Source: Desulfobacterales bacterium (GTDB lineage: Bacteria > Desulfobacterota > Desulfobulbia > Desulfobulbales > BM004). From it: DNA of 64,000 nucleotides. Under the pieces are notes generated by a model. That model was not told the origin of the DNA. It searched no databases and saw only the letters and a program-made list of their open reading frames with translations. A program made the translations under genes and the position numbers. Shown here piece after piece: positions 2,590 through 61,329 of the stretch (position 1 is the stretch's first letter; each line of letters begins with the position of its first letter). Location of the stretch: positions 6,210-70,209 of the forward strand of contig JAKITW010000002.1 of the NCBI GenBank assembly GCA_021647905.1. The letters are read 5' to 3'.

Positions 2590-3423
2590 TCAGATGACCT
2601 TGAGGGTTTCCACCACCAGCCGCTGGAGCCGGGGTTCGGTCTCCCGGGCCCGGGCAATGATCTCGTCGATCAGGATGGGCTCGAAATTATCCGGGTCATT
2701 GACATTGGCGACCACGGATATTCCCAGCACCCGCATGCCGGCGTGTCTGGCCACGATCACCTCGGGCACCGAGGACATGCCCACCCCGTCGGCCCCGCAG
2801 TTCCGCAGGTACCGGGTTTCAGCCGGTGTTTCAAGACTGGGCCCGGGGATGGCCGCATAGACCCCGCTGGTTACCCGGGGTATGTTGTGCTGTTCGGCGC
2901 AGGCCAGGGCCTTTTCAATGAGGTCCGGGTCATAGGGTTCGGACAGGTCCGGGAACCGCGGCCCCCAGTCATCCACATTGGGGCCGCGCAGGGGATTGTC
3001 CGGGATAAAGTTGAGGTGATCGCGGATGAGCATCAGGGTGCCGGGTTCAAAGGCCGGGTTAAGGCCGCCCGCGGCATTGGTTACCAGCAGGGTGTCCGCG
3101 CCGAGCAGGGCGAGAACCCTGAGCGGAAAGGTCAACTCCCGGGTGGAGTAACCCTCATAGTAGTGAAACCGGCCCTGGAGCATGGCCACGGCCTTGCCGC
3201 CCAGTTCACCGCAAACCAGGTTGCCGGCATGGCTCTTTACCGTGGACCGGGGGAAATGGGGGATTGCTTGATAGGGCAGGATGGCCGGCCCCTTGATCCG
3301 GCCGGCCAACTCACCCAGCCCGGTGCCCAGGACCAATACCACCCCGGGCAATCCTGGCAGCCGGTCGCGCAGAAACGCGGCCGCCGCCTCGGCCTGCTGA
3401 CGGTACTTTTCAATATCGATCAT
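2590..3423 (-). CDS. Purine nucleoside / methylthio-nucleoside phosphorylase (trimeric PNP/MTAP family)
   Basis: PHFPRSTVKSHAGNLVCGELGGK..GRFHYYEGY..VTNAAGGLNP..GPSLETPAE..GADGVGMSSVPE are PNP-family motifs. Start is either ATG 3423 or TTG 3429. Confidence 0.85.
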   Translation of the reverse strand: MIDIEKYRQQAEAAAAFLRDRLPGLPGVVLVLGTGLGELAGRIKGPAILPYQAIPHFPRSTVKSHAGNLVCGELGGKAVAMLQGRFHYYEGYSTRELTFPLRVLALLGADTLLVTNAAGGLNPAFEPGTLMLIRDHLNFIPDNPLRGPNVDDWGPRFPDLSEPYDPDLIEKALACAEQHNIPRVTSGVYAAIPGPSLETPAETRYLRNCGADGVGMSSVPEVIVARHAGMRVLGISVVANVNDPDNFEPILIDEIIARARETEPRLQRLVVETLKVI

Positions 3424-3435
3424 GGGCAATCCCCA

Positions 3436-3626
3436 CCGGAGTGACGTCTTTCATTGTTTGGTTGTGGCTGGGCAAATATGGTCCAGCCATGCTGGTTAGT
3501 TTATATGAAAGTCGTGCCGGACGAAGCTCGCTGTCCGGGGAGATTTTCATAGTTGGTTGTGGCTGCGGCCCCAAAATCATGGTCCAGCCATGCTGGTTAG
3601 TGTCCGTCCAGAAATGAGCAATTTCG
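3436..3626 (+). repeat. Tandem family A repeats (A2a half unit 3436-3499, A2b full unit 3500-3600) plus a 26-nt tail motif (3601-3626)
   Basis: TGGTCCAGCCATGCTGGTTAG occurs twice, 100 nt apart. Each is preceded by TTTCAT-nGTT-GTTGTGGCTG. The tail GTGTCCGTCCAGAAATGAGCAATTTC recurs inverted at 36977-37003. Confidence 0.8.
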
Positions 3627-3744: not shown

Positions 3745-5154
3745 TTACCGGGCATGGCCGGCGACAAACCGCCTTATCACCTCCGGGTCGGCATCAACCA
3801 CCCGGCAGCGGCTCTTTTTTCCCTCCAGGCCGGCCAGCCCGGGCGGCAGGGTCAACTTGCGGCCGATGGCCTCTTCCACCACCCGGCCGAACTTGGCCGG
3901 GTGGGCCGTGGCCAGGCAGACCAGCGGCACCCCGGGCTGCCGCAGGGCCTGGCCCGCATTGACCCCCACCGCGGTATGCGGATCAAGGATGTAGCCGTAT
4001 TCCCGGTAAAAGTTTTTAATGGTCGAGCGGGTCTCGGCCTCGCTGACCCGCTTGGCGGCAAAGTCGGCCCGGATCCGTTGCTGCTGCTCAAGGTCGAATG
4101 TGAGCCCGCCGCTTGCCGCAAACCGTTCCATGTCCTGCCGGGTCCGCTCCGGGTCCTGGTCGTTGAGATAGTACAAAAACCGCTCAAAATTGCTGGCCAG
4201 CTGGATATCCATGGACGGGCTGGAGGTGGCCTTGACCGTGCCCAGGGAATAATCGCCCTGGTTGACGAACCGGGCCAGCAGGTCGTTTTCATTGGTGGCC
4301 ATAATCAGGGTGCGGATTCGGCCGGCCCCCAGCAGCCGCTTGGCCACGAACCCGGCGAATATATCGCCGAAATTGCCGGTGGGCACCGAGAAGTCAACAG
4401 CCCGGTCCTTGTCGCCGGTCACCTGGAGCCAGGCATGGATGTAATAGACCACCTGGGCCAGGATCCGGGCCCAGTTGATGGAGTTGATCGCACCGAGGTG
4501 ATACCCTTCCTTGAACGGGATATCGTTGAACAGTTTTTTGACTATGGCCTGGCCCTGGTCAAAGGTGCCGCGGATGGCCAGGTTGAACACGTTGTCGTCC
4601 AGCACCGTGGTCATCTGCAGTTCCTGGATCCGGCTTACCCGCTTGTGGGGATGGAGGATAAAGATACTGATCCGCTCCTTGCCCCGTACCCCGTAAATGG
4701 CGGCGCTGCCGGTGTCGCCGGAAGTGGCGCCCAGGATATTCATCTTGCCGCCCGACTCCCGCAGGATATACTCAAAGACATTGCCGAGAAACTGCAGGGC
4801 CACGTCCTTGAAGGCCAGGGTCGGGCCATGGAAGAGTTCGAGGATGTGGTAATCGCCCAGGGTCCTGACCGGGGTGATCGCCGGATCACCAAACACGGCG
4901 TAGGAGCGGTCGATCAATTTCCCGAGATCGTTGGCAGGAATATCGGTAACGAACAGGCTGATGATTTCAAAGGCCAGTTGCCGGTAGGAAAGCTTTCCCT
5001 GGCAAAAATCCGCCTGCCAGCCGCGCACCGTATCATCGCCCGGAACGGGCAGGGACCGGGGCAGGAGCAGGCCGCCGTCAACGGCCAGCCCCATCCGGAC
5101 CGCCTCTTTGAACCGGATCGGCTCGATCCCGCCCCTGGTACTGATATACTTCAT
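3745..5154 (-). CDS. thrC: Threonine synthase
   Basis: MKYISTRGG.. N-terminus and HGPTLAFKD PLP-lysine motif. Start ATG 5154 forms an ATGA overlap with the gpmI stop. The track ORF has a spurious 40-aa N-terminal extension. Confidence 0.9.
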   Translation of the reverse strand: MKYISTRGGIEPIRFKEAVRMGLAVDGGLLLPRSLPVPGDDTVRGWQADFCQGKLSYRQLAFEIISLFVTDIPANDLGKLIDRSYAVFGDPAITPVRTLGDYHILELFHGPTLAFKDVALQFLGNVFEYILRESGGKMNILGATSGDTGSAAIYGVRGKERISIFILHPHKRVSRIQELQMTTVLDDNVFNLAIRGTFDQGQAIVKKLFNDIPFKEGYHLGAINSINWARILAQVVYYIHAWLQVTGDKDRAVDFSVPTGNFGDIFAGFVAKRLLGAGRIRTLIMATNENDLLARFVNQGDYSLGTVKATSSPSMDIQLASNFERFLYYLNDQDPERTRQDMERFAASGGLTFDLEQQQRIRADFAAKRVSEAETRSTIKNFYREYGYILDPHTAVGVNAGQALRQPGVPLVCLATAHPAKFGRVVEEAIGRKLTLPPGLAGLEGKKSRCRVVDADPEVIRRFVAGHAR

Positions 5155-6713
5155 TTGCTGTCTTGCCCGAGAATAAGGTTGTCGCCCTCCATCTCGGCCG
5201 GCACCGGCAGGTGGCGCAGGGCCAGCACCGTGGGGGCGATATCCTTCAGGGCCCCGCCGCTGCGCAGACGGCAACCCAGGTAACGCTCGCTCACCAGGAT
5301 AAAGGGCACCGGGTTGGAGGTGTGGGCGGTAAAGGGCCCGTTGGTTTCAGGATTGTACATGGTGTCGGCATTGCCGTGGTCCGAGGTGATCAGGGTTATC
5401 CCGCCCAGGGCGGTGATTCTTTTCACCAGCCGGCCGAGACATCGATCCACGGTCTCGCACGCCTTGACCGCCGCGGCCATCACCCCGGTATGGCCGACCA
5501 TGTCACCGTTGGCAAAATTGAGCACGATCAGATCGTAGGGATTCTCGTCAAGCCGGGCAAGCAATTCGTCGGTCACCTCCTTCGCGCTCATCTCCGGCTT
5601 GAGATCATAGGTGGCCACATCCTTGGGCGAAGGGACCAGGACCCTGTCCTCCAGGGGAAAGGGCTCCTCGCGGCCGCCGTTGAAGAAGTAAGTGACATGG
5701 GCGTATTTTTCAGTCTCGGCGATTCGCAGCTGGCGCAGGCCGTGCCGACTGATCTCCTCGCCGAGAATCCGGAAGAGCAATACCGGAGGAAAGACCACCG
5801 GCATGGTGAAATGTTTGTCATACCGGGTAAAGGTGAGGTACTCGGCCAGGACCGGTTGCCGGGCCCTGGAAAAACCGGTAAAGTCCGGATCAATAAAGGC
5901 ATGGGTCAGTTCCCGGGCCCGGTCGGCCCGGAAGTTGAAGAAGAGCACCGTGTCTCCGTCATTGATCGTGGCCACCGGTCTTCCGGAATCATCAACCAGC
6001 ACGATCGGCTTGATGAACTCGTCGGTTTCGCCACGCTCATAGGCGTCCTCCACCGCGGCTATCGGATCGTCGGCCATAATTCCCTTGCCATCCACCAGGG
6101 CCTGCCAGGCGAGCCGGACCCGGTCCCAGCGGTTGTCCCGGTCCATGGCATAGTAGCGGCCGGAGACAGTGGCCACCTTGCCCGCGCCAGTGGTGGTCAG
6201 GGTGGCGGAAAGTTCCTGCAGGTAGCCGGCCCCGCTCTTGGGCGGGGTGTCCCGGCCGTCCATAAAGGCATGGATAAAGATTCCCTCGACCCCATGGTCC
6301 GCCGCCATCCGCACCAGGGCCTTGAGGTGATCGATATGGCTGTGCACGCCGCCGTCCGAGACCAGGCCCAGCAGGTGGAGGGCGCCGCCGGACTCCCGGG
6401 CCTGGCTGAAGGCGCGCACCAGCACCTGGTTGGTAAAAAAATCACCCTGCTCAAGGGCCCGGTTGATCCGGGTGAAATCCTGGTACACGACCCGGCCGGC
6501 GCCGATGTTGAGATGGCCCACCTCGGAGTTGCCCATCTGGCCCTCGGGCAGTCCCACTGCGCCGTCATGGGCATCAAGGGTGGTAAAGGGATAGCGCTTT
6601 GTCCAGTGATCAAGGTTGGGGGTGGCGGCCACATGGATGGCATTGGTGCCAATGGGCCGGCCATGTCCCCAGCCGTCGAGAATGGCCAGCAGAATCGGGG
6701 ATACTTTTTTCAT
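5151..6713 (-). CDS. gpmI: 2,3-bisphosphoglycerate-independent phosphoglycerate mutase
   Basis: ILDGWG, GQMGNSEVGHLN, LVSDGGVHSH, TSDHGNA motifs over the full 520 aa. Confidence 0.93.
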   Translation of the reverse strand: MKKVSPILLAILDGWGHGRPIGTNAIHVAATPNLDHWTKRYPFTTLDAHDGAVGLPEGQMGNSEVGHLNIGAGRVVYQDFTRINRALEQGDFFTNQVLVRAFSQARESGGALHLLGLVSDGGVHSHIDHLKALVRMAADHGVEGIFIHAFMDGRDTPPKSGAGYLQELSATLTTTGAGKVATVSGRYYAMDRDNRWDRVRLAWQALVDGKGIMADDPIAAVEDAYERGETDEFIKPIVLVDDSGRPVATINDGDTVLFFNFRADRARELTHAFIDPDFTGFSRARQPVLAEYLTFTRYDKHFTMPVVFPPVLLFRILGEEISRHGLRQLRIAETEKYAHVTYFFNGGREEPFPLEDRVLVPSPKDVATYDLKPEMSAKEVTDELLARLDENPYDLIVLNFANGDMVGHTGVMAAAVKACETVDRCLGRLVKRITALGGITLITSDHGNADTMYNPETNGPFTAHTSNPVPFILVSERYLGCRLRSGGALKDIAPTVLALRHLPVPAEMEGDNLILGQDSK

Positions 6714-9565: not shown

Positions 9566-9623
9566 GGTAACCACTCACAGGGTGGCGCTTTCCACCTGTC
9601 GAGCACACTCCTTGCCCGGTAGG
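9566..9623 (+). repeat. Family C repeat (copy C1)
   Basis: GGTAACCACtCACAGGGTGGCGCTTTCCACCTGTCGAGcACACTCCTTGCCCGGTAgG is nearly identical to 58913-58970. A partial copy lies at 39463-39506. Confidence 0.65.
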
Positions 9624-9835
9624 CTTTCACCGGTGCCGGAGATACGCGTGTCCGTCAATCATCGGCCGTAGTGTTGACCGATACTCGTCGTGTCAACGGG
9701 AAACTTTCCGTAACGCGGCAACCGGCGTTTTTTACGACGCCATCACCTTTACCTTGTCGCGGGCCTCATCACAATCTTTTTTTTGACTTCAAAGGGGGGG
9801 TAACGACAAAAAACCAGCGTAGAAACAAAAGGAAC

Positions 9836-11992
9836 TCAGTTGATGAACTTCAGCTTCTTGTACTCCAGGCAGGCGGTCTCATGGCCCAGTTCGCAGGCAA
9901 TCTTAAGATCCTCGATCGCCTTTTGCCGGTCATTGATATAGATCCACTCCATGGCGCGGTGGTAATAGGCCCGACCGTTGTCCGGGCCGAACTCAATGGC
10001 CTTGTTGAAGTCGGCCAGGGCCTGGATGTGCTGTCCCTTGCGGGCCAGGGCCTGGCCGCGGCTGTGATAGGCCTCGCCGTAGCGGGGATTAAGCTCCACG
10101 GCCCGGGAGAAATCCTCAATAGCCCTGTCAAAGAGATTTTTCAGGATATGGGCCTTGCCCCGGCGCAGGTAAGCCTCGGCAACGTCCGGGTCAAGGCTGA
10201 TCGCCTTGTCAAAGTCGGCAATTGCCTGGTCGGCCTGCTGTTGCCGAAGCCGGGCCGTTCCGCGCTGGAGATAGAGCCCGGCATCACCGGGTGAGAACTC
10301 AAAGGCATGGTTGAAATCCTCCAGGGCCGCGGCCGGATCGGACAGGGCGAGACGGGAAATGCCCCGGTAATAAAAGGCCGGCCCGTGGCCCGGTTGCAGG
10401 CGGAGCGCGGTGTTGAAAAGGGTGATCGCCCCGGGGTGCTGGCCGCGCGCCGCCAGCACCGTGCCATGGCTGACAAACACCTCGGCATGGGCCGGGGAAC
10501 CCTGCATCAGTTCGGGACGCAGCTTCAGCACCTTGGCAAAATCGTTCAACGCGGCCTCATGCTGGCCGCGCCGGGCAAAGGCCAGGCCCCGCTGGTTGTA
10601 AGCCTCGGCATGGAGGGGGTTCAACTCGATGGCCCGGTTGAAGTCAGCCACGGCATCGTCAAAGAGATTTCTGAGGATGGCGATCCGGCCACGGCCGGCA
10701 TAGGCATCGGCCAGCCGGGGGTTGAGCTTGATCGCCTTGTCAAAGTCACTGTATGCGGCCTCAATCCGTCGCTGTTCAAGCAAAATCTGCCCGCGCCGTA
10801 AATAGGCCTTGGCATGACCGGGATGCAGGCGAATGGCGGTCTCCAGGTCAACCAGGGCCTGGTCCTGCTGGCCGTTGCGCGAACGGACAGTGGCCCGGTA
10901 ATAATAGGCAACAGCCAGGGCCGGGTTGTTGCCGGCCCCTGGCGGCACCAGCTCGATTGCCCGGTTGAAATCAGCCAGGGCCTCGGCCGGTTGCCCGCGC
11001 AGGGCATGAACCCGGCCGCGGTTGAGGTGGGCCGCCGCATAGCCGGGTCTCAAGGCAATGGCCCGGGTGTAATCGGCAAGGGCCCGGTCCAGGCGGCCCT
11101 TCAGCAACATGGCGTCAGCACGCCGGCAATGGGCCGTGGCATTCTCCGGATGACAGGCAATGGCCTGCTCGAAATCGGCAATGGCCTTGTCAACAGACCC
11201 TGTCCGGAGCAGGGCAATACCGCGGTTGGTGTAGGCGGCCGTTGATAGCGGATCAAGCTCGAGCGCCTTGGCATACAGGGCGAGCGCCGCCTTGACCCGG
11301 CCCCGGCGCAACGCCTTGTTGGCCCGTTGGCCGTAGAGCCGGGCCCTTTCCCCGGCACTCGGCTCAACACCTTTTGCCGCCGGTCCCGGACCCGCATCCC
11401 CTGGCGCACCGGGTACTGATTCCCGGACCGTTTCAATTACCAGTTCCGGCCCTGGCTCCTCCGGTCCGGTGTCCGGCGCGGTTTCCCGAACCACCGGGGT
11501 TGGCGCGGCCGGTTTCCGTGCCGGCTCCGCCGCTTCCGGCAAGGATTCGGGAATATCGCTGATCGTCGGGCCGGGCAGGGGTTCAGGCCCCGGCGGCGGC
11601 ACGGGAATATCCCCACGGTCGAGCCGGCCGGTGTCTGCCGGCAAAGCGGCAGTGCCCGGTTTCCCAGCCCGCTCGAAATCGAAACGCGCCTTGATCTCCT
11701 GGCCGAGTTCCTGGTGAATACGGCCCCGGGCCATATACGCCGGACCCAGTTCATGGTCAAGTTTCAGGGCCTGGTCATAATCGGCCAGGGCCTTGCGCGG
11801 CCTGCCGGCCCGGTAGAGCGCCAGGCCCCGCCTGAAATAGGCGTCCGCGTAGCCGCGCCCATCTTCCGGGGGATGGCTGCGGCGGCGCTCCGCCAGCTGC
11901 TGCCTGAGAAACAGACCGGTGAGGACAATGGCGGCCAGGACAACAGCACTGCCAATCACCAGAAAAAGGCTATAAAGGACCGTTGCAAGCAT
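9836..11992 (-). CDS. Membrane-anchored tetratricopeptide-repeat (TPR) protein
   Basis: N-terminal hydrophobic helix (LYSLFLVIGSAVVLAAIVLTGLF), a Pro-rich linker, then more than 12 34-residue A..Y..RG.......A..DF..AI.L.P repeats. Confidence 0.85.
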   Translation of the reverse strand: MLATVLYSLFLVIGSAVVLAAIVLTGLFLRQQLAERRRSHPPEDGRGYADAYFRRGLALYRAGRPRKALADYDQALKLDHELGPAYMARGRIHQELGQEIKARFDFERAGKPGTAALPADTGRLDRGDIPVPPPGPEPLPGPTISDIPESLPEAAEPARKPAAPTPVVRETAPDTGPEEPGPELVIETVRESVPGAPGDAGPGPAAKGVEPSAGERARLYGQRANKALRRGRVKAALALYAKALELDPLSTAAYTNRGIALLRTGSVDKAIADFEQAIACHPENATAHCRRADAMLLKGRLDRALADYTRAIALRPGYAAAHLNRGRVHALRGQPAEALADFNRAIELVPPGAGNNPALAVAYYYRATVRSRNGQQDQALVDLETAIRLHPGHAKAYLRRGQILLEQRRIEAAYSDFDKAIKLNPRLADAYAGRGRIAILRNLFDDAVADFNRAIELNPLHAEAYNQRGLAFARRGQHEAALNDFAKVLKLRPELMQGSPAHAEVFVSHGTVLAARGQHPGAITLFNTALRLQPGHGPAFYYRGISRLALSDPAAALEDFNHAFEFSPGDAGLYLQRGTARLRQQQADQAIADFDKAISLDPDVAEAYLRRGKAHILKNLFDRAIEDFSRAVELNPRYGEAYHSRGQALARKGQHIQALADFNKAIEFGPDNGRAYYHRAMEWIYINDRQKAIEDLKIACELGHETACLEYKKLKFIN

Positions 11993-14415: not shown

Positions 14416-14572
14416 GGGTCACCTCGCGGGATTCGGTTGCAGTGCTTGCCGTCCCGTATTTAAAAAGGCAACGGTCGGAAACGCAAGTTTTTTCAATTTT
14501 TTCACTGTTTTTCAATCAGCCGGCCGGAGACCCCTTTCTCCATTTGACGGGAAAGGGAACTCCGGCAAATAT

Positions 14573-14788
14573 TGTCGGTCTCGCAACAACCCGCTCGACG
14601 GACGTGTGCCATGTTGTAACTTGTTGATTTTATTGGGTGGCATTTGAAGCCTTTCGGGTTGTTACCAGTTCATCAAGTATTGTCGGTCTCGCAACAACCC
14701 GCTCGACGGACGTGTGTCATGTTGTAACTTGTTGATTTTATTGGGTGGCATTTGAAGCCTTTCGGGTTGTTACCAGTTCATCAAGTAT
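14573..14788 (+). repeat. Family B repeat, two directly abutting 108-nt units (B1, B2)
   Basis: Unit: TGTCGGTCTCGCAACAACCCGCTCGACGGACGTG..GTTGTAACTTGTTGATTTTATTGGGTGGCATTTGAAGCCTTTCGGGTTGTTACCAGTTCATCAAGTAT. The two units differ at one base. Confidence 0.9.
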
Positions 14789-14829
14789 TGTCAAGGAAGG
14801 AAGTTCGCGTCTGTGGGGGGACAAAGGAA

Positions 14830-21628: not shown

Positions 21629-21657
21629 TTGCCTCTGGAATTGGATTTTACTATAAT
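21629..21657 (+). promoter_or_regulatory. Sigma-70-type promoter candidate (TTGCCT-17 nt-TATAAT)
   Basis: TTGCCT at 21629-21634 and a perfect TATAAT at 21652-21657 with a 17-nt spacer. It faces the TonB-receptor gene. Confidence 0.5.
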
Positions 21658-21662
21658 AAATA

Positions 21663-21768
21663 TGATGAACTCGTAACAACCCGAAAGGCTTCAAATGCCA
21701 CCCAATAAAATCAACAAGTTACAAGACGAATCACGTCCGTCGAGCGGGTTGTTGCGAGACCGACAAAT
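21663..21768 (-). repeat. Family B repeat (copy B3, inverted orientation)
   Basis: 106 nt identical to 32316-32421. It is the reverse complement of the 14573 unit, apart from a short variable centre. Confidence 0.9.
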
Positions 21769-21771
21769 ATG

Positions 21772-21912
21772 TTTATATGAAAATCGTAACCATTCACCGG
21801 GGGTATGGAATTACGGTAACCTCATGCCCGTAAGCAGAGTCCTTGTAATGGCAGAGTGATATCTTTACTTTGTTTCGTTGTAACCGGCCAACATGGTCCA
21901 GCCATGCTGGGC
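21772..21912 (+). repeat. Family A repeat (copy A8, with an enlarged first hairpin)
   Basis: Starts TTTATATGAAAATCG and ends TTTCGTTGTaaCcGGCCAACATGGTCCAGCCATGCTGG. Confidence 0.55.
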
Positions 21913-21969
21913 TGGCTGAGAAAACAGGGTTGCCGAAACCATCCGGCGTCTCTTTGGGAGAGAGGAAAT

Positions 21970-28373: not shown

Positions 28374-28476
28374 GTTTATATGAAAGTCGCCACCAGGCGC
28401 CAGCCTTGCCATGCCGGAGTGACGTCTTTCATTATTTCGTTGTGGCTGGACAAATATGGTCCAGCCATGCTGGTTG
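28374..28476 (+). repeat. Family A repeat (copy A4, complete alpha-type unit)
   Basis: TTTATATGAAAGTCGCC..CCTTGCCATGCCGGAGTGACGTCTTTCATT..GTTGTGGCTGGACAAATATGGTCCAGCCATGCTGGTTGG. Two hairpins: ATGAAAG/CTTTCAT and TGGCTGGA/TCCAGCCA. Confidence 0.85.
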
Positions 28477-28508
28477 GTAAAAAATTGTTGCTTCCTGCTG
28501 TTATCGAT

Positions 28509-32221: not shown

Positions 32222-32315
32222 CGAGAAAACCTCCTTTTTGCGGCACGGCCGGCCCGTGCCGGACAAAAAACACCTATACAGCACCATAGAACAGGGAAAA
32301 AGGTCAAGTCAAATG

Positions 32316-32480
32316 TGATGAACTCGTAACAACCCGAAAGGCTTCAAATGCCACCCAATAAAATCAACAAGTTACAAGACGAATCACGTCCGTCGAGCGG
32401 GTTGTTGCGAGACCGACAAATGTGGTGAACCGGCAACAACCCGAAACATTACAACCACCACTGAATAAAATCAAAAAACC
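32316..32480 (-). repeat. Family B repeat (B4, 32316-32421) plus a degenerate partial second unit (32424-32480)
   Basis: 106 nt identical to 21663-21768. It is followed by GTGAACCGGCAACAACCCGAAAcattACAaCCACCactGAATAAAATCAA, which resembles the first half of the unit. Confidence 0.85.
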
Positions 32481-32528
32481 CACGGCTCTTCGTTGTTTCC
32501 CGGTATAAAAACTATTACTATATGACGC

Positions 32529-39424: not shown

Positions 39425-39462
39425 TTATAAACTGTTCCCGGACAAAGCACTTTTTCCGACAC

Positions 39463-39506
39463 CGGGTGGCCTTTTCCACCTGTCGAGCAGACTTGTTGCC
39501 CAGTGA
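39463..39506 (+). repeat. Family C repeat, partial (copy C3)
   Basis: CCGGGTGGCcTTTTCCACCTGTCGAGCAgACTtgTTGCCCaGT aligns with the core of 9583-9620. Confidence 0.5.
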
Positions 39507-39507
39507 A

Positions 39508-39613
39508 AATTGTCGGTCTCGCAACAACCCGCTCGACGGACGTGATTCGTCTTGTAACTTGTTGATTTTATAGGGTGGCATTTGAAGCCTTTCGGGTTGT
39601 TACAAGTCCATCA
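39508..39613 (+). repeat. Family B repeat (copy B5)
   Basis: Differs from the reverse complement of B3/B4 at about 3 positions by eye. It fills the dnaN-gyrB spacer. Confidence 0.88.
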
Positions 39614-39760
39614 AAATTTTCTGTCGGATTATAAATATCAACCCTTTCCCCTGGAAAACAAAGACCTGGGTATCCTTGAACCACCCCATTAAAATTCCTC
39701 TGGGTGGATATTTTTTTTCATTGTTATCCTGGGGGGGAAAAATAGTTGAGGGGCTTCATT

Positions 39761-44344: not shown

Positions 44345-44446
44345 CAAACCAGCATGGCCGGACCAAACTTTACGGCCGCAGCCACAACCAACAATGAAAA
44401 TCTCCCCGGACACCTGGCGTTGTCACGGAACGATTTTCATATAAAA
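44345..44446 (-). repeat. Family A repeat (copy A7, beta subtype, inverted)
   Basis: The reverse complement reads TTTTATATGAAAATCG..GTGTCCGGGGAGATTTTCATTGTTGGTTGTGGCTGCGGCC..TGGTCCgGCCATGCTGGTTTG. It starts 1 nt after the stop of the preceding gene. Confidence 0.85.
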
Positions 44447-47850: not shown

Positions 47851-48188
47851 TGACAACTCGGGAAAGGGGTCTTCTTCTACCAACGGCCGCTCCATTGAGG
47901 TAAGCGTTCACCAGCACCTCATCTTCGCCCATTTTGGCCTGCTCGAATAGCACCAGTATGCTTCGCAGTCCCAAATGAACGAATCTAAGCCACTGGTGAA
48001 CGCTTACGGGCATGAGATTACCATAAATCCGTACCTCCGGTGAACGGTTACCCATTGAGAAGGGCCGGCTGTTCATAACCAGGCTATCAAACAGGAACTC
48101 GCTTCGCCGCGGCGGCGATTCGGAATCCATAAGCATATCCTGCCGAAGTTGTTTCAATTTCCGCAACCTTACACATAAACTCCTGGTT

Positions 48189-52033: not shown

Positions 52034-52144
52034 TTTTATATGAAGGCCGGCACGTGAGTGACGGTCTTGCCATGCCGGGGTGACGCCTTTCGTTTTTTTG
52101 TTGTGGCAGCGTCCCAAAAGTTATGGTCCAGCCATGCTGGTTAG
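52034..52144 (+). repeat. Family A repeat (copy A5, alpha subtype)
   Basis: TTTTATATGAAgGcCGG..GGTCTTGCCATGCCGGgGTGACGCCTTTCgTT..GTTGTGGCaGcG..AAAAGTTATGGTCCAGCCATGCTGGTTAG. Its last bases supply the stop codon of the gene at 52141-52446. Confidence 0.85.
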
Positions 52145-52446
52145 TCCTGAACACCGTAGGGAACGATGACATCCATTTCCCGGAGTTTCTGGCCCAGCTC
52201 TTCAATAGTGATGGCGGTGAACCCGTTGTTCTCCACATTGGCCGGTACCGTGGAATAGGCCTCGCCTTCCATATCCCGGATCCATTCCATGTTTTCGGCG
52301 TGGTATTCGCTCAGCGGGGCAAGCTCGGTGTTGAGCACCACGGCGTAGGAGTAATGGTTGGCAACGGCAAGACCCAGGGTGGAGCGGAGGCCGTCAAGGG
52401 TATCATCCTCGTTTTTTGCAAACATGAAGCATACTTTTTTAGACAT
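52141..52446 (-). CDS. DsrE/DsrF/TusC-like family protein (101 aa, no active-site Cys seen)
   Basis: The size and the N-terminal KKVCFMFAKNEDD..LRSTLGLAV pattern resemble the DsrE-fold sulfur-relay subunits. Immediately downstream of a DsrE-like paralog. The family call is tentative. Confidence 0.65.
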   Translation of the reverse strand: MSKKVCFMFAKNEDDTLDGLRSTLGLAVANHYSYAVVLNTELAPLSEYHAENMEWIRDMEGEAYSTVPANVENNGFTAITIEELGQKLREMDVIVPYGVQD

Positions 52447-55105: not shown

Positions 55106-55181
55106 GGTTGTCGGTCTTGTAACAGGTGCAACACGTCTGACCCGATCACCGGTGCCGGTGGTAATTGACAAGCGAGGAGCC

Positions 55182-56989: not shown

Positions 56990-57056
56990 AACAGGTGTTA
57001 AGGCTAAGGGTTGTCGGAACGTTACGGCCGCAACATCGAAACCAACAGGAAACAGC

Positions 57057-58912: not shown

Positions 58913-58970
58913 GGTAACCACGCACAGGGTGGCGCTTTCCACCTGTCGAGTACACTCCTTGCCCGGTAAG
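58913..58970 (+). repeat. Family C repeat (copy C2)
   Basis: GGTAACCACgCACAGGGTGGCGCTTTCCACCTGTCGAGtACACTCCTTGCCCGGTAaG. It differs from C1 at about 3 positions. Confidence 0.65.
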
Positions 58971-58985
58971 ATTTCCAGCTGTTTT

Positions 58986-60119
58986 TCAGCCGGTGGTGAG
59001 AATCCCCATCACCAGGCCGGCACAGCGGATCATATCGGCAAGCTCAATGGTTTCATCCGTGGTATGCACCTTGGTCATGCCGGTGCCGATGATGGCGCAG
59101 TCATACCCCTTACTGGTAAGGATATTGGCATCGCTGCCGCCGCCGGCGGTGCGGAAGGCGAGGTCCCGGCCGGCCCTGGCCGCCCGCTGGATGACCGGGG
59201 CGTCCCTGGCCAGCTTCATCACCGGATACTCCTGAACAACGGTTACCGCCACCCCGGATTTTCCGGCCGCCTTATCGCAGTGACCGCTCCAGTCGTCCAC
59301 CACCTGGTAAAAGGTCTCCTTGACCTCCTCGGTCAGGGCGTTGAGGGTGGCTTCGGAGTGGCTGCGGATTTCGCCCATGACCACGGCCTTTCCCGGAATG
59401 ATATTGGTTGCCACCCCGCCCTTGATCAGCCCCACATTGGCAGTACTCTCCCTGTCGATCCGGCCCAGGTGCAGCTCGGCCACGGCCCTGGCCGCCAGCT
59501 GGATGGCATTGATCCCCTGTTCCGGATTCAGGCCGGCATGGGCCGAGACCCCGCAGATTTCAGCGGTGTAGCGGTTGGCGGCCGGCGCGCCAATGATCAC
59601 GCTGTTGGTCTCGGTGGTGTCCAGGGCATAGCCCATTTTTGCGATCAGCCGGCTGCAGTCAAGGGCCTTGACCCCCAGGAGGCCGATCTCCTCGCCGGTG
59701 GTGAAGATAAACTCCACCGGCCCGTGGGGGATCTTGTTTTCCCGGAGCGCGCGGATCACCTCGATCAACACGGCAATGCCGGATTTATCGTCAGCCCCGA
59801 GCACGGTCTCGCCCCTGCTGGAAAAACGGTCGCCCTCCCGGACCACCGCAACCCCCTCGCCCGGCTGTACCGTATCCAGGTGGCAGTTGAAAAAAACTGG
59901 TTCCAGGTCCAGGCCGCCATCAACAAAACGGACAAGCAGGTTGCCGCAGTCCGAGCCGGTGACCGGGGCCGAGTCATCCTCAAACACGCTGGCCCCCATT
60001 TCAGTGAAAAGGGTGGTGAGATAGGCGGCCAGCGTCCCCTCCTTTCCAGAGGGGCTGTCGATTTCACAGAGTGTTGTAAAAAGATCGGCCAGTCGTTCCT
60101 TGTTGATTACCATGGTCAT
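58986..60119 (-). CDS. M20-family metallopeptidase (peptidase T-like)
   Basis: HLDTV, DDKSGIAVLIE, TTGEEIGLLG and the C-terminal GGGSDAN motif. AGAGGTA lies upstream of the ATG. Confidence 0.85.
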   Translation of the reverse strand: MTMVINKERLADLFTTLCEIDSPSGKEGTLAAYLTTLFTEMGASVFEDDSAPVTGSDCGNLLVRFVDGGLDLEPVFFNCHLDTVQPGEGVAVVREGDRFSSRGETVLGADDKSGIAVLIEVIRALRENKIPHGPVEFIFTTGEEIGLLGVKALDCSRLIAKMGYALDTTETNSVIIGAPAANRYTAEICGVSAHAGLNPEQGINAIQLAARAVAELHLGRIDRESTANVGLIKGGVATNIIPGKAVVMGEIRSHSEATLNALTEEVKETFYQVVDDWSGHCDKAAGKSGVAVTVVQEYPVMKLARDAPVIQRAARAGRDLAFRTAGGGSDANILTSKGYDCAIIGTGMTKVHTTDETIELADMIRCAGLVMGILTTG

Positions 60120-60177
60120 TACCTCTGTTCAGCCCAGCTTCTATTCTGTGAAACCGCGACTTGCTTGTTTATCAGTT

Positions 60178-60283
60178 TTGTCGGTCTCGCAACAACCGCT
60201 CGACGGACGTGGCTCGTCTTGTAGCTTGTTGATGTTATCCGGTGGCATTTGAAGCGTTGGGGGGTTGTTACTGGTTCGTCAAT
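60178..60283 (+). repeat. Family B repeat (copy B6, most diverged), overlapping the last codons of ald
   Basis: TGTCGGTCTCGCAACAACCGCTCGACGGACGTGgctCGTCTTGTAgCTTGTTGATgTTATccGGTGGCATTTGAAGCgTTggGGGGTTGTTACtgGTTCgTCAA. Confidence 0.75.
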
Positions 60284-61329
60284 TTTCCGTGCAGCACATT
60301 GATCCCGCGCCTCAGGGCCGGATCCTCTTCCGCTGCCCGTTCAACACCTTTATCGGCAATGGCCAGGACAAAGGGCAGGGTGACGTTGGTCAGGGCAAAG
60401 GTCGAGGTTCTGGGCACAGCGCCGGGCATGTTGGTGACACAGTAGTGAATGATCCCATTGATATTAAAGGTGGGTTCCGAGTGGGTGGTGGGTCTGGCGG
60501 TCTCCACGCAGCCGCCCTGGTCAATGGCCACATCCACAATCACCGCCCCTTTTTTCATGGTCTTGAGCATCTCCCGGGAGACCAGTTTCGGGGCGTTGCT
60601 CCCCGGGATCAGCACCGCTCCCACCAGCAGGTCGGCAACAACCAGCTCCTGTTCGATATTATGCTGGTTGGACATCAGGGTCGTGATCCGGTTGGCAAGG
60701 ATGTCTTCCAGGTAGGCCAGCCGGTGCAGGTCGGTATCGAGCACAGTGACCGTGGCGCCCAGGGCGGTTGCCACCCGGGCCGCATTGGCGCCCACGGTGC
60801 CGCCGCCGAGAATGGTGACGTGGCCGTGTTCCACTCCCGGCACCCCGCCCAGCAGGATGCCGCGGCCGCCTTTTTCCCGGGCAAGAAAATGGGCGCCCAC
60901 CTGGACGGCCATCCGGCCGGCCACTTCGCTCATCGGCGCCAGCAGGGGGAGGTAGCCGTTTTCCAGTTGAACGGTTTCGTAACCAATGGCCGTGACCCCC
61001 TTGTTGATCAACGCCCCGGTTAACTCCGGCAGCGGGGCCAGGTGCAGGTAGGTGAAAAGAATAAGGCCCGGTCGAAGAAAGGGGTATTCGGCTTCAATTG
61101 GTTCCTTGACCTTGACCACCATCTCGGCCCGGCCGTAGACCTCCTCGGCCCGGGCCACGATCTCGGCCCCGGCCCGCTGGTATTCAAGGTCGCTGATATC
61201 ACTGCCCTGGCCTGCCCCGGCTTCCAGCAGGACCCGGTGGCCGGCCAGGGTTAAGGTCCTGACCCCGGCCGGGACCATGCCCACCCGGTATTCCCGGTCT
61301 TTTATTTCTCTGGGTACGCCGATGATCAT
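60268..61329 (-). CDS. ald: Alanine dehydrogenase
   Basis: [35 protein letters not shown] (NAD fold)..[10 protein letters not shown]. Start at ATG 61329. The track ORF has a 54-aa extension. Confidence 0.9.

Follow-up and report, generated by a model that had tools for sequence, protein, structure and literature searches.

Family B, a 100-nt repeat in a Desulfobulbales-like MAG lineage, is very probably a recently expanded non-autonomous DNA transposon

According to our analysis, the dispersed repeat termed Family B is very probably a non-autonomous DNA transposon (MITE) that is mobilised in trans and has recently expanded in an uncultured, Desulfobulbales-like MAG lineage of sulfate-reducer type. 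The element is apparently previously undescribed. Its full copies in the window, by which we mean the whole 64-kb stretch of DNA that was analysed, are each bordered by short direct repeats that differ from site to site. These target-site duplications are the decisive feature and are missing from an earlier note on the same DNA, which had named recent MITE-like mobility with mobilisation in trans as the first of three options. That reading is borne out by the site-specific duplications, by empty sites in relatives, by the restoration of a truncated alanine dehydrogenase gene (ald) when the inserted copy is removed, and by copies elsewhere in relatives; the supply in trans is the part that we infer.

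Results

Copies of the element in the window

A combination of repeat search, alignment and nhmmer places six full copies (c1 to c6), two of them forming a head-to-tail pair, and one relic of ~60 nt in the 64-kb window (Table 1), and a search with the nhmmer family profile with all filters off yielded no copy beyond these. The six full copies listed in the earlier note were all located, and their similarities are as it had described them. Segments 14573-14680 and 14681-14788 are identical at 107 of 108 positions, with a sole C/T mismatch at 14609/14717, and segments 21663-21768 and 32316-32421, both inverted relative to the tandem pair, agree at 106 of 106. The two copies regarded as more diverged are c5 at 39.5 kb (92-97% identical to other copies) and c6 at 60.2 kb (83-86%). 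Allowing at most one mismatch, the 11-mer CGGGTTGTTAC occurs 14 times in comparison to 0.79 expected occurrences, a count that none of 100 shuffles reached.

Table 1. Positions of Family B copies, their flanking repeats and the severed end of ald. Positions refer to the window; for the two copies on contig L001, which lies outside the window, only the flanking repeats are listed.
Feature	Position	Strand	Flanking repeats	Profile score (nhmmer)	Remarks
Left target-site duplication of tandem pair	14566..14573	+	CAAATATT		8-mer present once in relatives
c1	14574..14673	+	CAAATATT, CAAGTATT	107.6 bits	100 nt; centre variant I (TGCCATG)
Middle duplication shared by c1 and c2	14674..14681	+	CAAGTATT
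c2	14682..14781	+	CAAGTATT, CAAGTATT	108.5 bits	100 nt; centre variant I (TGTCATG)
Right target-site duplication of tandem pair	14782..14789	+	CAAGTATT
c3	21665-21764	-	CATATTT, CATATTT	110.9 bits	Centre variant II; 21658..21771 with duplications
Duplications of c3, both sides	21658-21664 and 21765-21771	-	CATATTT
c4	32318-32417	-	CACATTT, CACATTT		Sequence identical to c3; 32311..32424 with the 7-bp repeat on each side
Relic	32425..32484	-		E 0.0017	Right-hand ~60 nt of a diverged older copy; repeat D8, 77%
c5	39512-39611	+	GAAAATT, CAAAATT	109.7 bits	Centre variant II; 39505..39618 with duplications
c6	60180-60279	+	CAGTTTT, CAATTTT		Most diverged copy in the window; 60173..60286 with duplications
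Orphaned 3' end of ald	60119..60172	-			17 codons plus stop, INKQVAVSQNRSWAEQR; severed by c6
L001 copy a			CATGGCTT, CATGGCTT
L001 copy b			CAGGATT, CAGGATT

Copy c4 is located ~30 nt upstream of the start of a GGDEF gene and is arranged head-to-tail with the relic, the CACATTT repeat being common to both. The relic corresponds to a degenerate half unit that had been placed at 32424-32480. Its profile match covers model positions 49-99, and comparison with locus L017 of a close relative refined its limits to those given in Table 1. The relic is not a full copy with an internal deletion, since L017 shows its apparent left part to be native flank. Copy c5 is positioned between dnaN and gyrB, where it abuts a D9-type repeat, and the insertion point of c6 is the 3' end of ald.

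Two short relatives that had been suspected at 55107-55135 and 57010-57040 did not hold up, as they have at most a 10-mer in common with the left end and the family profile does not pick them up at E≤10. The former matches the left end alone (TTGTCGGTCTTGTAAC...) and is a statistically unsupported candidate for a solo end or a very short derivative. Likewise statistically unsupported is a weak left-end-like match (GTCGGCCTCGCAATAATTGTTGTTCGC..., E 2.2) at 3253-3287 of locus L021, which adjoins a tRNA gene.

Structure of the unit

All full copies are units of 100 nt (GTCGGTCTCGCAACAACCCG...CGGGTTGTTACnAGTTCAT) bounded by GTCGG...TTCAT. The repeat itself is real, but the length of ~106 nt assigned to it previously was wrong, since 106-108 nt takes in the flanking duplication. 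A unit starts with GTCGGTCTCGCAACAACCCG, ends with CGGGTTGTTACGAGTTCAT and is laid out as GTCGGTCTCGCAACAACCCGCTCGACGGACGTG, a 7-nt centre and TTGTAACTTGTTGATTTTATTGGGTGGCATTTGAAGCCTTTCGGGTTGTTACnAGTTCAT. Direct reading of the ends reveals imperfect, subterminal inverted repeats that agree at 13 of 15 positions (TCTCGCAACAACCCG vs ACTCGTAACAACCCG), with the words CTCGCAACAACCCG on the left and CGGGTTGTTACGAG on the right. The outermost 3-5 nt are asymmetric, with GTCGG at one end vs ATGAA on the complementary end. Folds of both strands contain a long-range foldback helix of 9-14 bp, in agreement with the earlier description of imperfect terminal inverted repeats forming a helix of 10-11 bp. 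Alternative ends of the form TG...CA, for which the terminal inverted repeat would match at 16 of 21 positions, were rejected upon sequence inspection because the flanking repeats then fall out of register.

Each unit carries four GTTGT-type words. Its GC content is 48% vs 58% for the window, with flanks of 34-53%. Four of the six reading frames of the unit contain stops, and the earlier statement that no copy encodes a conserved ORF holds. Sigma-54 and sigma-70 promoters and terminators were not found inside the unit in our scan. At c3, a hybrid promoter-like site was observed at 21650-21679 (minus strand), with a -35 element TTGTTA in the right end of the copy, an 18-nt spacer and a -10 element TATAGT in the flank. 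It faces an ABC substrate-binding gene, is a consensus match only and has no counterpart at any other copy.

The left end contains a local 10-bp inverted repeat around the word CAACAACCCG, which is perfect in the copy of locus L007 and matches at 9 of 10 positions in the copy of L017 and at 7 of 10 in the window copies, so that the hairpin is broken at three of its ten pairs in every copy of the window. One double change within this hairpin separates L007 from L017; in a shuffle control, which the hairpin failed, 460 of 500 shuffles scored at least as high.

Two variants of the centre are present, as had been described. Form I (TGYCATG or TGTCACC) is complementary to a downstream GGTGGCA box and was found in c1, c2, L007 and L021, while form II (RYTCGTC) lacks this complementarity, and a form-II-like block is present in the diverged copy c6. 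Apart from the block, just one position distinguishes window copies of form I from those of form II. The L007 copy, which is ~78% identical overall, and the L021 copy, with several differences outside the block, nevertheless carry the same form I. For this reason the 7-nt centre looks as if it had been exchanged between copies. Gene conversion, which had been offered as one explanation for the high identity of the copies, is not needed as the main explanation but may have contributed to this swapped block. Differences between lineages take the form of 4-nt inversions (CTCG vs CGAG and TGTA vs TACA). At two of the five loci in the window, the element is paired head-to-tail and the partners have one duplication in common.

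Target-site duplications

At every full copy a direct repeat of 7-8 bp lies directly outside GTCGG...TTCAT, and its sequence varies by site (Table 1). For the seven independent insertions with clean ends, the left and right repeats match at 7/8, 7/7, 7/7, 6/7, 6/7, 8/8 and 7/7 positions. A permutation test that combined each left flank with a right flank from another copy gave at most 6 over 1854 derangements, as against an observed score of 42. Site-specific recombination is excluded, since the flanking repeats differ between sites. The target is AT-rich and mostly of the form CA(N3-4)TT. Since CA and TT can be read in the unoccupied c1/c2 and c6 sites as well, they are part of the target rather than of the element.

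Empty sites in close relatives

Close relatives were reached via protein clusters at 90% identity. They comprise GCA_054013415.1 (loci L017, L019 and L021; 81-89% nucleotide identity) and the metagenome ERZ23498652 (loci L018 and L020; about 89-93%). The GyrB of the window is 100% identical to MCF6289490.1, a protein of the MAG that also encodes, as L3J03_00500, the adenylate cyclase beside the tandem pair. GyrB identity then drops to 81%, the value for Desulfobulbales-type MAGs; of these, L013 and L014 are too distant for the definition of an empty site at the nucleotide level.

In the closest relatives available, none of the five loci is occupied, and at 81-93% nucleotide identity the sites of c1/c2, c3, c4 plus relic, and c5 are precisely empty. 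The 8-mer targeted by the tandem pair occurs singly in the relatives, as CAAGCGTT in L020 and CAAGCTTT in L019 (plus strand of the window). Read on one and the same strand, the empty site is ...CTTGAC-AACGCTTG-CGGGG in L020 and ...CTGAC-AAAGCTTG-CGACC in L019, and the filled site of the window is ...CTTGAC-AATACTTG, c2, AATACTTG, c1, AATATTTG-CCGGAG. At the c3 site, L019 is continuous across the AT-rich target without the element. L017 reads AAGAGC-ATTT-GACTTGACC at the site of c4 and the relic, where the window has, from AAGAGC to GACTTGACC, the relic and c4, each followed by CACATTT. The dnaN-gyrB spacer measures 169 nt in L017 and 192 nt in L018 vs 357 nt in the window, both relatives being without c5 and without the adjoining D9-type segment. 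Finally, AAAATTG is single in L021, L022 and L023, where it lies inside the ald frame, and the window reads AAAATTG, c6, AAAACTG.

Truncation of alanine dehydrogenase by c6

The Ald of the window is annotated with 353 aa (60268-61329, minus strand) and ends in ...GKLTNQ, its last three codons and the stop being supplied by c6. In-silico removal of c6 together with one duplication yields an Ald of 367 aa ending in ...GKLINKQVAVSQNRSWAEQR. As far as residue 364, the restored tail can be aligned with solved Ald structures, and the closest homologues end almost identically (P0134, 367 aa: ...GKLMNKKVAVSQNRSWAEQR). Ald proteins of the relatives have 365-367 aa, and almost all homologues listed have 365-375 aa. 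The insertion of c6 has cost alanine dehydrogenase its last 17 codons. The claim that all copies are intergenic fails for this copy, which is situated inside the original ald frame. The orphaned end has a TAA stop that shares bases with the start codon ATG of the M20 peptidase gene downstream (TAATG), and the orphaned tail is still readable, from which we infer that the truncation is fairly recent or tolerated.

Copies outside the window

Older, diverged members of Family B occur in related lineages. A diverged copy at 552-651 of L017 (21.8 bits, E 2e-6) lies between a beta-lactamase-like gene and dnaN, where the window is uninterrupted. L021 contains a well-conserved copy at 680-778 (92.6 bits, centre variant I) with the flanks TACATTT and CACGTTT, in a part beyond the region covered by the window. 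Another copy, 75-78% identical, is found on L007, a metagenome contig of 1.4 kb with window-like composition (tetranucleotide r 0.91). This was the one true relative in a metagenome scan with a pattern consisting of the terminal inverted repeats only, which otherwise returned ten chance palindromes. A second contig of the window's own MAG holds at least one copy, identified through the spurious protein P0121 / L3J03_12175, whose last 24 residues are translated element.

The sole match in a genome-collection scan with a degenerate pattern of the 3' half was L001 (JAJRVS010000153.1, 6.5 kb), which is assigned to the 'Verrucomicrobia bacterium' MAG Dive96_bin10.62 and is the only matching contig of that genome. 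Its copies at 4207-4306 and 6287-6386 match c3/c4 with 100% and 98% identity and both have perfect duplications, and a C-to-T variant of the second copy recurs in the L3J03 protein. The two copies flank a RhuM gene, which lies beside a gene for the specificity (S) subunit of a type I restriction-modification system. Its composition is unlike that of the window (GC 47.7%, r 0.34). Identical copies in a Verrucomicrobia-binned contig point to a misplaced or transferred island, and we posit that L001 may be an island or mobile DNA that shared a cell with the transposase of the element and was probably misbinned. Among viral contigs, one scan was empty and another gave one chance match in a coding region; blastn against plasmids gave only a chance match of 33 nt.

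Other repeats in the neighbourhood

The window contains further small repeats. Members of a 'family A' repeat (...CAACAATGAAAATCTCC...ATGGTCCAGCCATGCTGG...) were observed at 351-391, 3436-3601, 21851-21915, 28374-28478, 44366-44424 and 52066-52145, as well as in L019 (about 11170-11275) and L007 (1207-1234), where the Family B copy abuts a 'family A' motif. A member of ~100 nt in the cyclase-T2SSE spacer of L019 is missing in the window and in L020, so 'family A' is insertion-polymorphic too. The D9 repeat (GGGTGGCGCTTTCCACCTGTCGAGCA...) is found at 9566-9628, 39450-39512 and 58913-58975; its copy at 39.4 kb is part of a dnaN-gyrB segment of ~105 nt that is missing in both close relatives, and c5 lies exactly at its end. 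A palindromic element of ~108 nt at 47900-48007, with the ends GTAAGCGTTCACC..., has related arms at 21786-21835 and 48002-48051 (inverted repeats I11 and I15), one arm of this type lying 22 nt from c3. This palindrome may represent a fourth small mobile family.

Between 34405 and 42344 the gene order is dnaN-gyrB-gyrA-gpsA without adjacent dnaA or recF, and a beta-lactamase-like gene is situated divergently upstream of dnaN. The same order of the four genes in L013, L014 and L017 identifies it as a feature of the lineage.

Discussion

Proposed mobility and alternative explanations

With its 100 nt, Family B lies within the 50-500 bp typical of MITEs, and its inverted repeats are within the range of ~4-30 bp, with the caveat that the outermost 3-5 nt are not inverted repeats. 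Direct repeats of target-duplication type flank all young copies and the target is single in the empty sites, the element is devoid of coding capacity, including for a transposase, and its presence or absence at orthologous sites distinguishes five window loci as well as copies elsewhere in relatives. No transposase, integrase or reverse-transcriptase domains were detected by Pfam in the 44 window ORFs scanned, consistent with the earlier reading of this region. We posit that a transposase encoded elsewhere in the genome would bind the imperfect subterminal inverted repeats, probably assisted by the internal GTTGT-type words, and would excise or copy the element. A DDE-type cut, staggered by 7-8 bp, would then allow insertion into AT-rich DNA, mostly at CA(N3-4)TT, and repair of the gaps would generate the flanking direct repeats. 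Any effect on the expression of neighbouring genes would likewise be a putative one. Among the families catalogued in ISfinder, ISL3, IS256, IS66, IS6 and IS1595 have duplications of about 8 bp and are, by duplication length alone, among the candidate parents.

Several features speak against the MITE reading. Asymmetric outermost ends (GTCGG vs ATGAA) are unusual in a DDE-type substrate, the duplication varies in length (7 or 8 bp), and the head-to-tail pairs need either tandem duplication or insertion targeted beside a resident end. The two-form centre cassette, the double change in the left-end hairpin and the pairs sharing one duplication together raise the idea of an unusual transposition mode, in which resident ends are targeted or a circle or dimer junction serves as intermediate, or of a domesticated module exchanged between copies, for instance a small RNA with a seed or a protein site that can be switched. 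We consider this idea unlikely.

The near-identity of the copies could in principle be held by selection at the RNA level, if Family B were a structured small RNA or a cis-regulatory RNA family. Its folds are stable, with z values of -2.4 (c1) and -4.1 (c3) for the strand complementary to the consensus, several blocks are conserved across diverged lineages, and every copy is close upstream of a gene start, at 30-220 nt for the insertions other than c6. Inverted repeats, however, yield a stable fold anyway, and the left-end helix is broken in the window and failed its shuffle control as described above. A covariance-model check on Rfam families gave no relevant match: at the gathering threshold the whole window contained only a tRNA, and at E≤10 the tandem pair produced only chance matches of 11-13 bits. 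RNAalifold counted no compensatory pair among nine copies, with +0.12 as the covariation term. The copies also have mixed orientations relative to the downstream gene (c3 and c4 sense; c1, c2, c5 and c6 antisense), and target duplications and empty sites show that they arrived by insertion. An RNA family is therefore very unlikely, and selection on an RNA or protein-binding function, which had been put forward earlier, is not supported by the Rfam, covariation and orientation results. Insertion evidence also bears on an array of GTTGT-type binding sites that was spread and homogenised by gene conversion. While the four GTTGT-containing words per unit and a 7-nt centre acting like a swapped cassette would fit such an array, gene conversion requires a prior homologous site and makes no target duplications, the orthologous sites in relatives are without any homologue, and one copy truncates a coding sequence. 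As a spreading mechanism, gene conversion is largely refuted by these insertions, and we regard the array as highly improbable.

A different kind of mobile element, namely a palindrome of REP/REPIN or IS200/IS605 type moved as single-stranded DNA by RAYT or TnpA (HUH), would agree with the small size of Family B, with the 10-bp inverted repeat at its left end and with outermost ends that are not inverted repeats. Elements of these types enter the DNA beside a short target of fixed sequence and are not known to give rise to target-site duplications, whereas every young copy of Family B has a variable 7-8-bp duplication whose target is single in the empty sites. Moreover, the 44 window ORFs scanned include no HUH, RAYT or TnpB gene, and such an origin has in our view only a slim chance of being correct, slimmer than that of an RNA family. 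Least probable of all, and close to negligible, is an assembly or binning artefact that gave rise to spurious identical repeats. The source is indeed a MAG and the members of the tandem pair differ by a single base, but each copy has unique flanks and its own duplication, the unit of ~100 nt is probably below typical short-read length, and copies recur in the independent assemblies of L001, L007, L021 and L017 and on the second contig of the same MAG. If anything is at risk of being artefactual, it is solely the number of copies in the tandem pair.

Significance

As a non-autonomous transposon, Family B is ordinary mobile DNA and opens no new biological principle. Annotation of this Desulfobulbales-like MAG lineage nevertheless needs care, given the truncated ald and the inflated spacers, including that between dnaN and gyrB. 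The insertion polymorphism at five loci can serve as a strain marker separating the MAG of the window from relatives at 81-93% identity. Family B is accompanied in the window by at least two or three more families of small repeats, and in combination they suggest a genome that is unusually permissive to small non-autonomous elements.

Comparison with known elements

Prokaryotic MITEs are defined as AT-rich, intergenic elements of <500 bp with terminal inverted repeats of ~4-30 bp and direct repeats flanking young copies, which are mobilised in trans by the transposase of an insertion sequence (PMC10969869). Family B resembles them in its length of 100 bp, its imperfect inverted repeats, the direct repeats of 7-8 bp, the lack of coding sequence, a GC content below that of the host, insertion into AT-rich intergenic DNA, many near-identical copies and foldback transcripts. 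It is unlike them in having subterminal inverted repeats and no symmetry in its outermost 3-5 nt. QMITE2 of Coxiella burnetii has direct repeats of 7-9 bp, terminal inverted repeats of 23-29 bp and a core of 113-145 bp (PMC10969869). The direct repeats of 7-8 bp in Family B and the occurrence of truncated relics beside full copies are similar, but Family B is about half the size, has shorter terminal inverted repeats and no sequence similarity, and belongs to another host phylum.

Chunjie, a MITE from Geobacter uraniireducens Rf4, measures 178-235 bp (Chen et al. 2008, summarised in PMC10969869). Both elements are found in related anaerobic 'deltaproteobacterial' hosts, were recently active, are mostly intergenic and exist as full and partial copies; one copy of Chunjie lies inside an operon, and Family B truncates the 3' end of a gene. 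Chunjie is larger than the 100-nt Family B, and no sequence similarity was found or expected. The Correia elements of Neisseria and the RUP elements of Streptococcus pneumoniae are intergenic elements of ~100-150 bp bounded by terminal inverted repeats, which reach high copy numbers and are capable of forming hybrid promoters or altering transcripts. In both cases the duplicated target is the dinucleotide TA, and an IS630-type transposase has been linked to RUP. The duplication of 7-8 bp by Family B, in contrast, points to a different transposase family.
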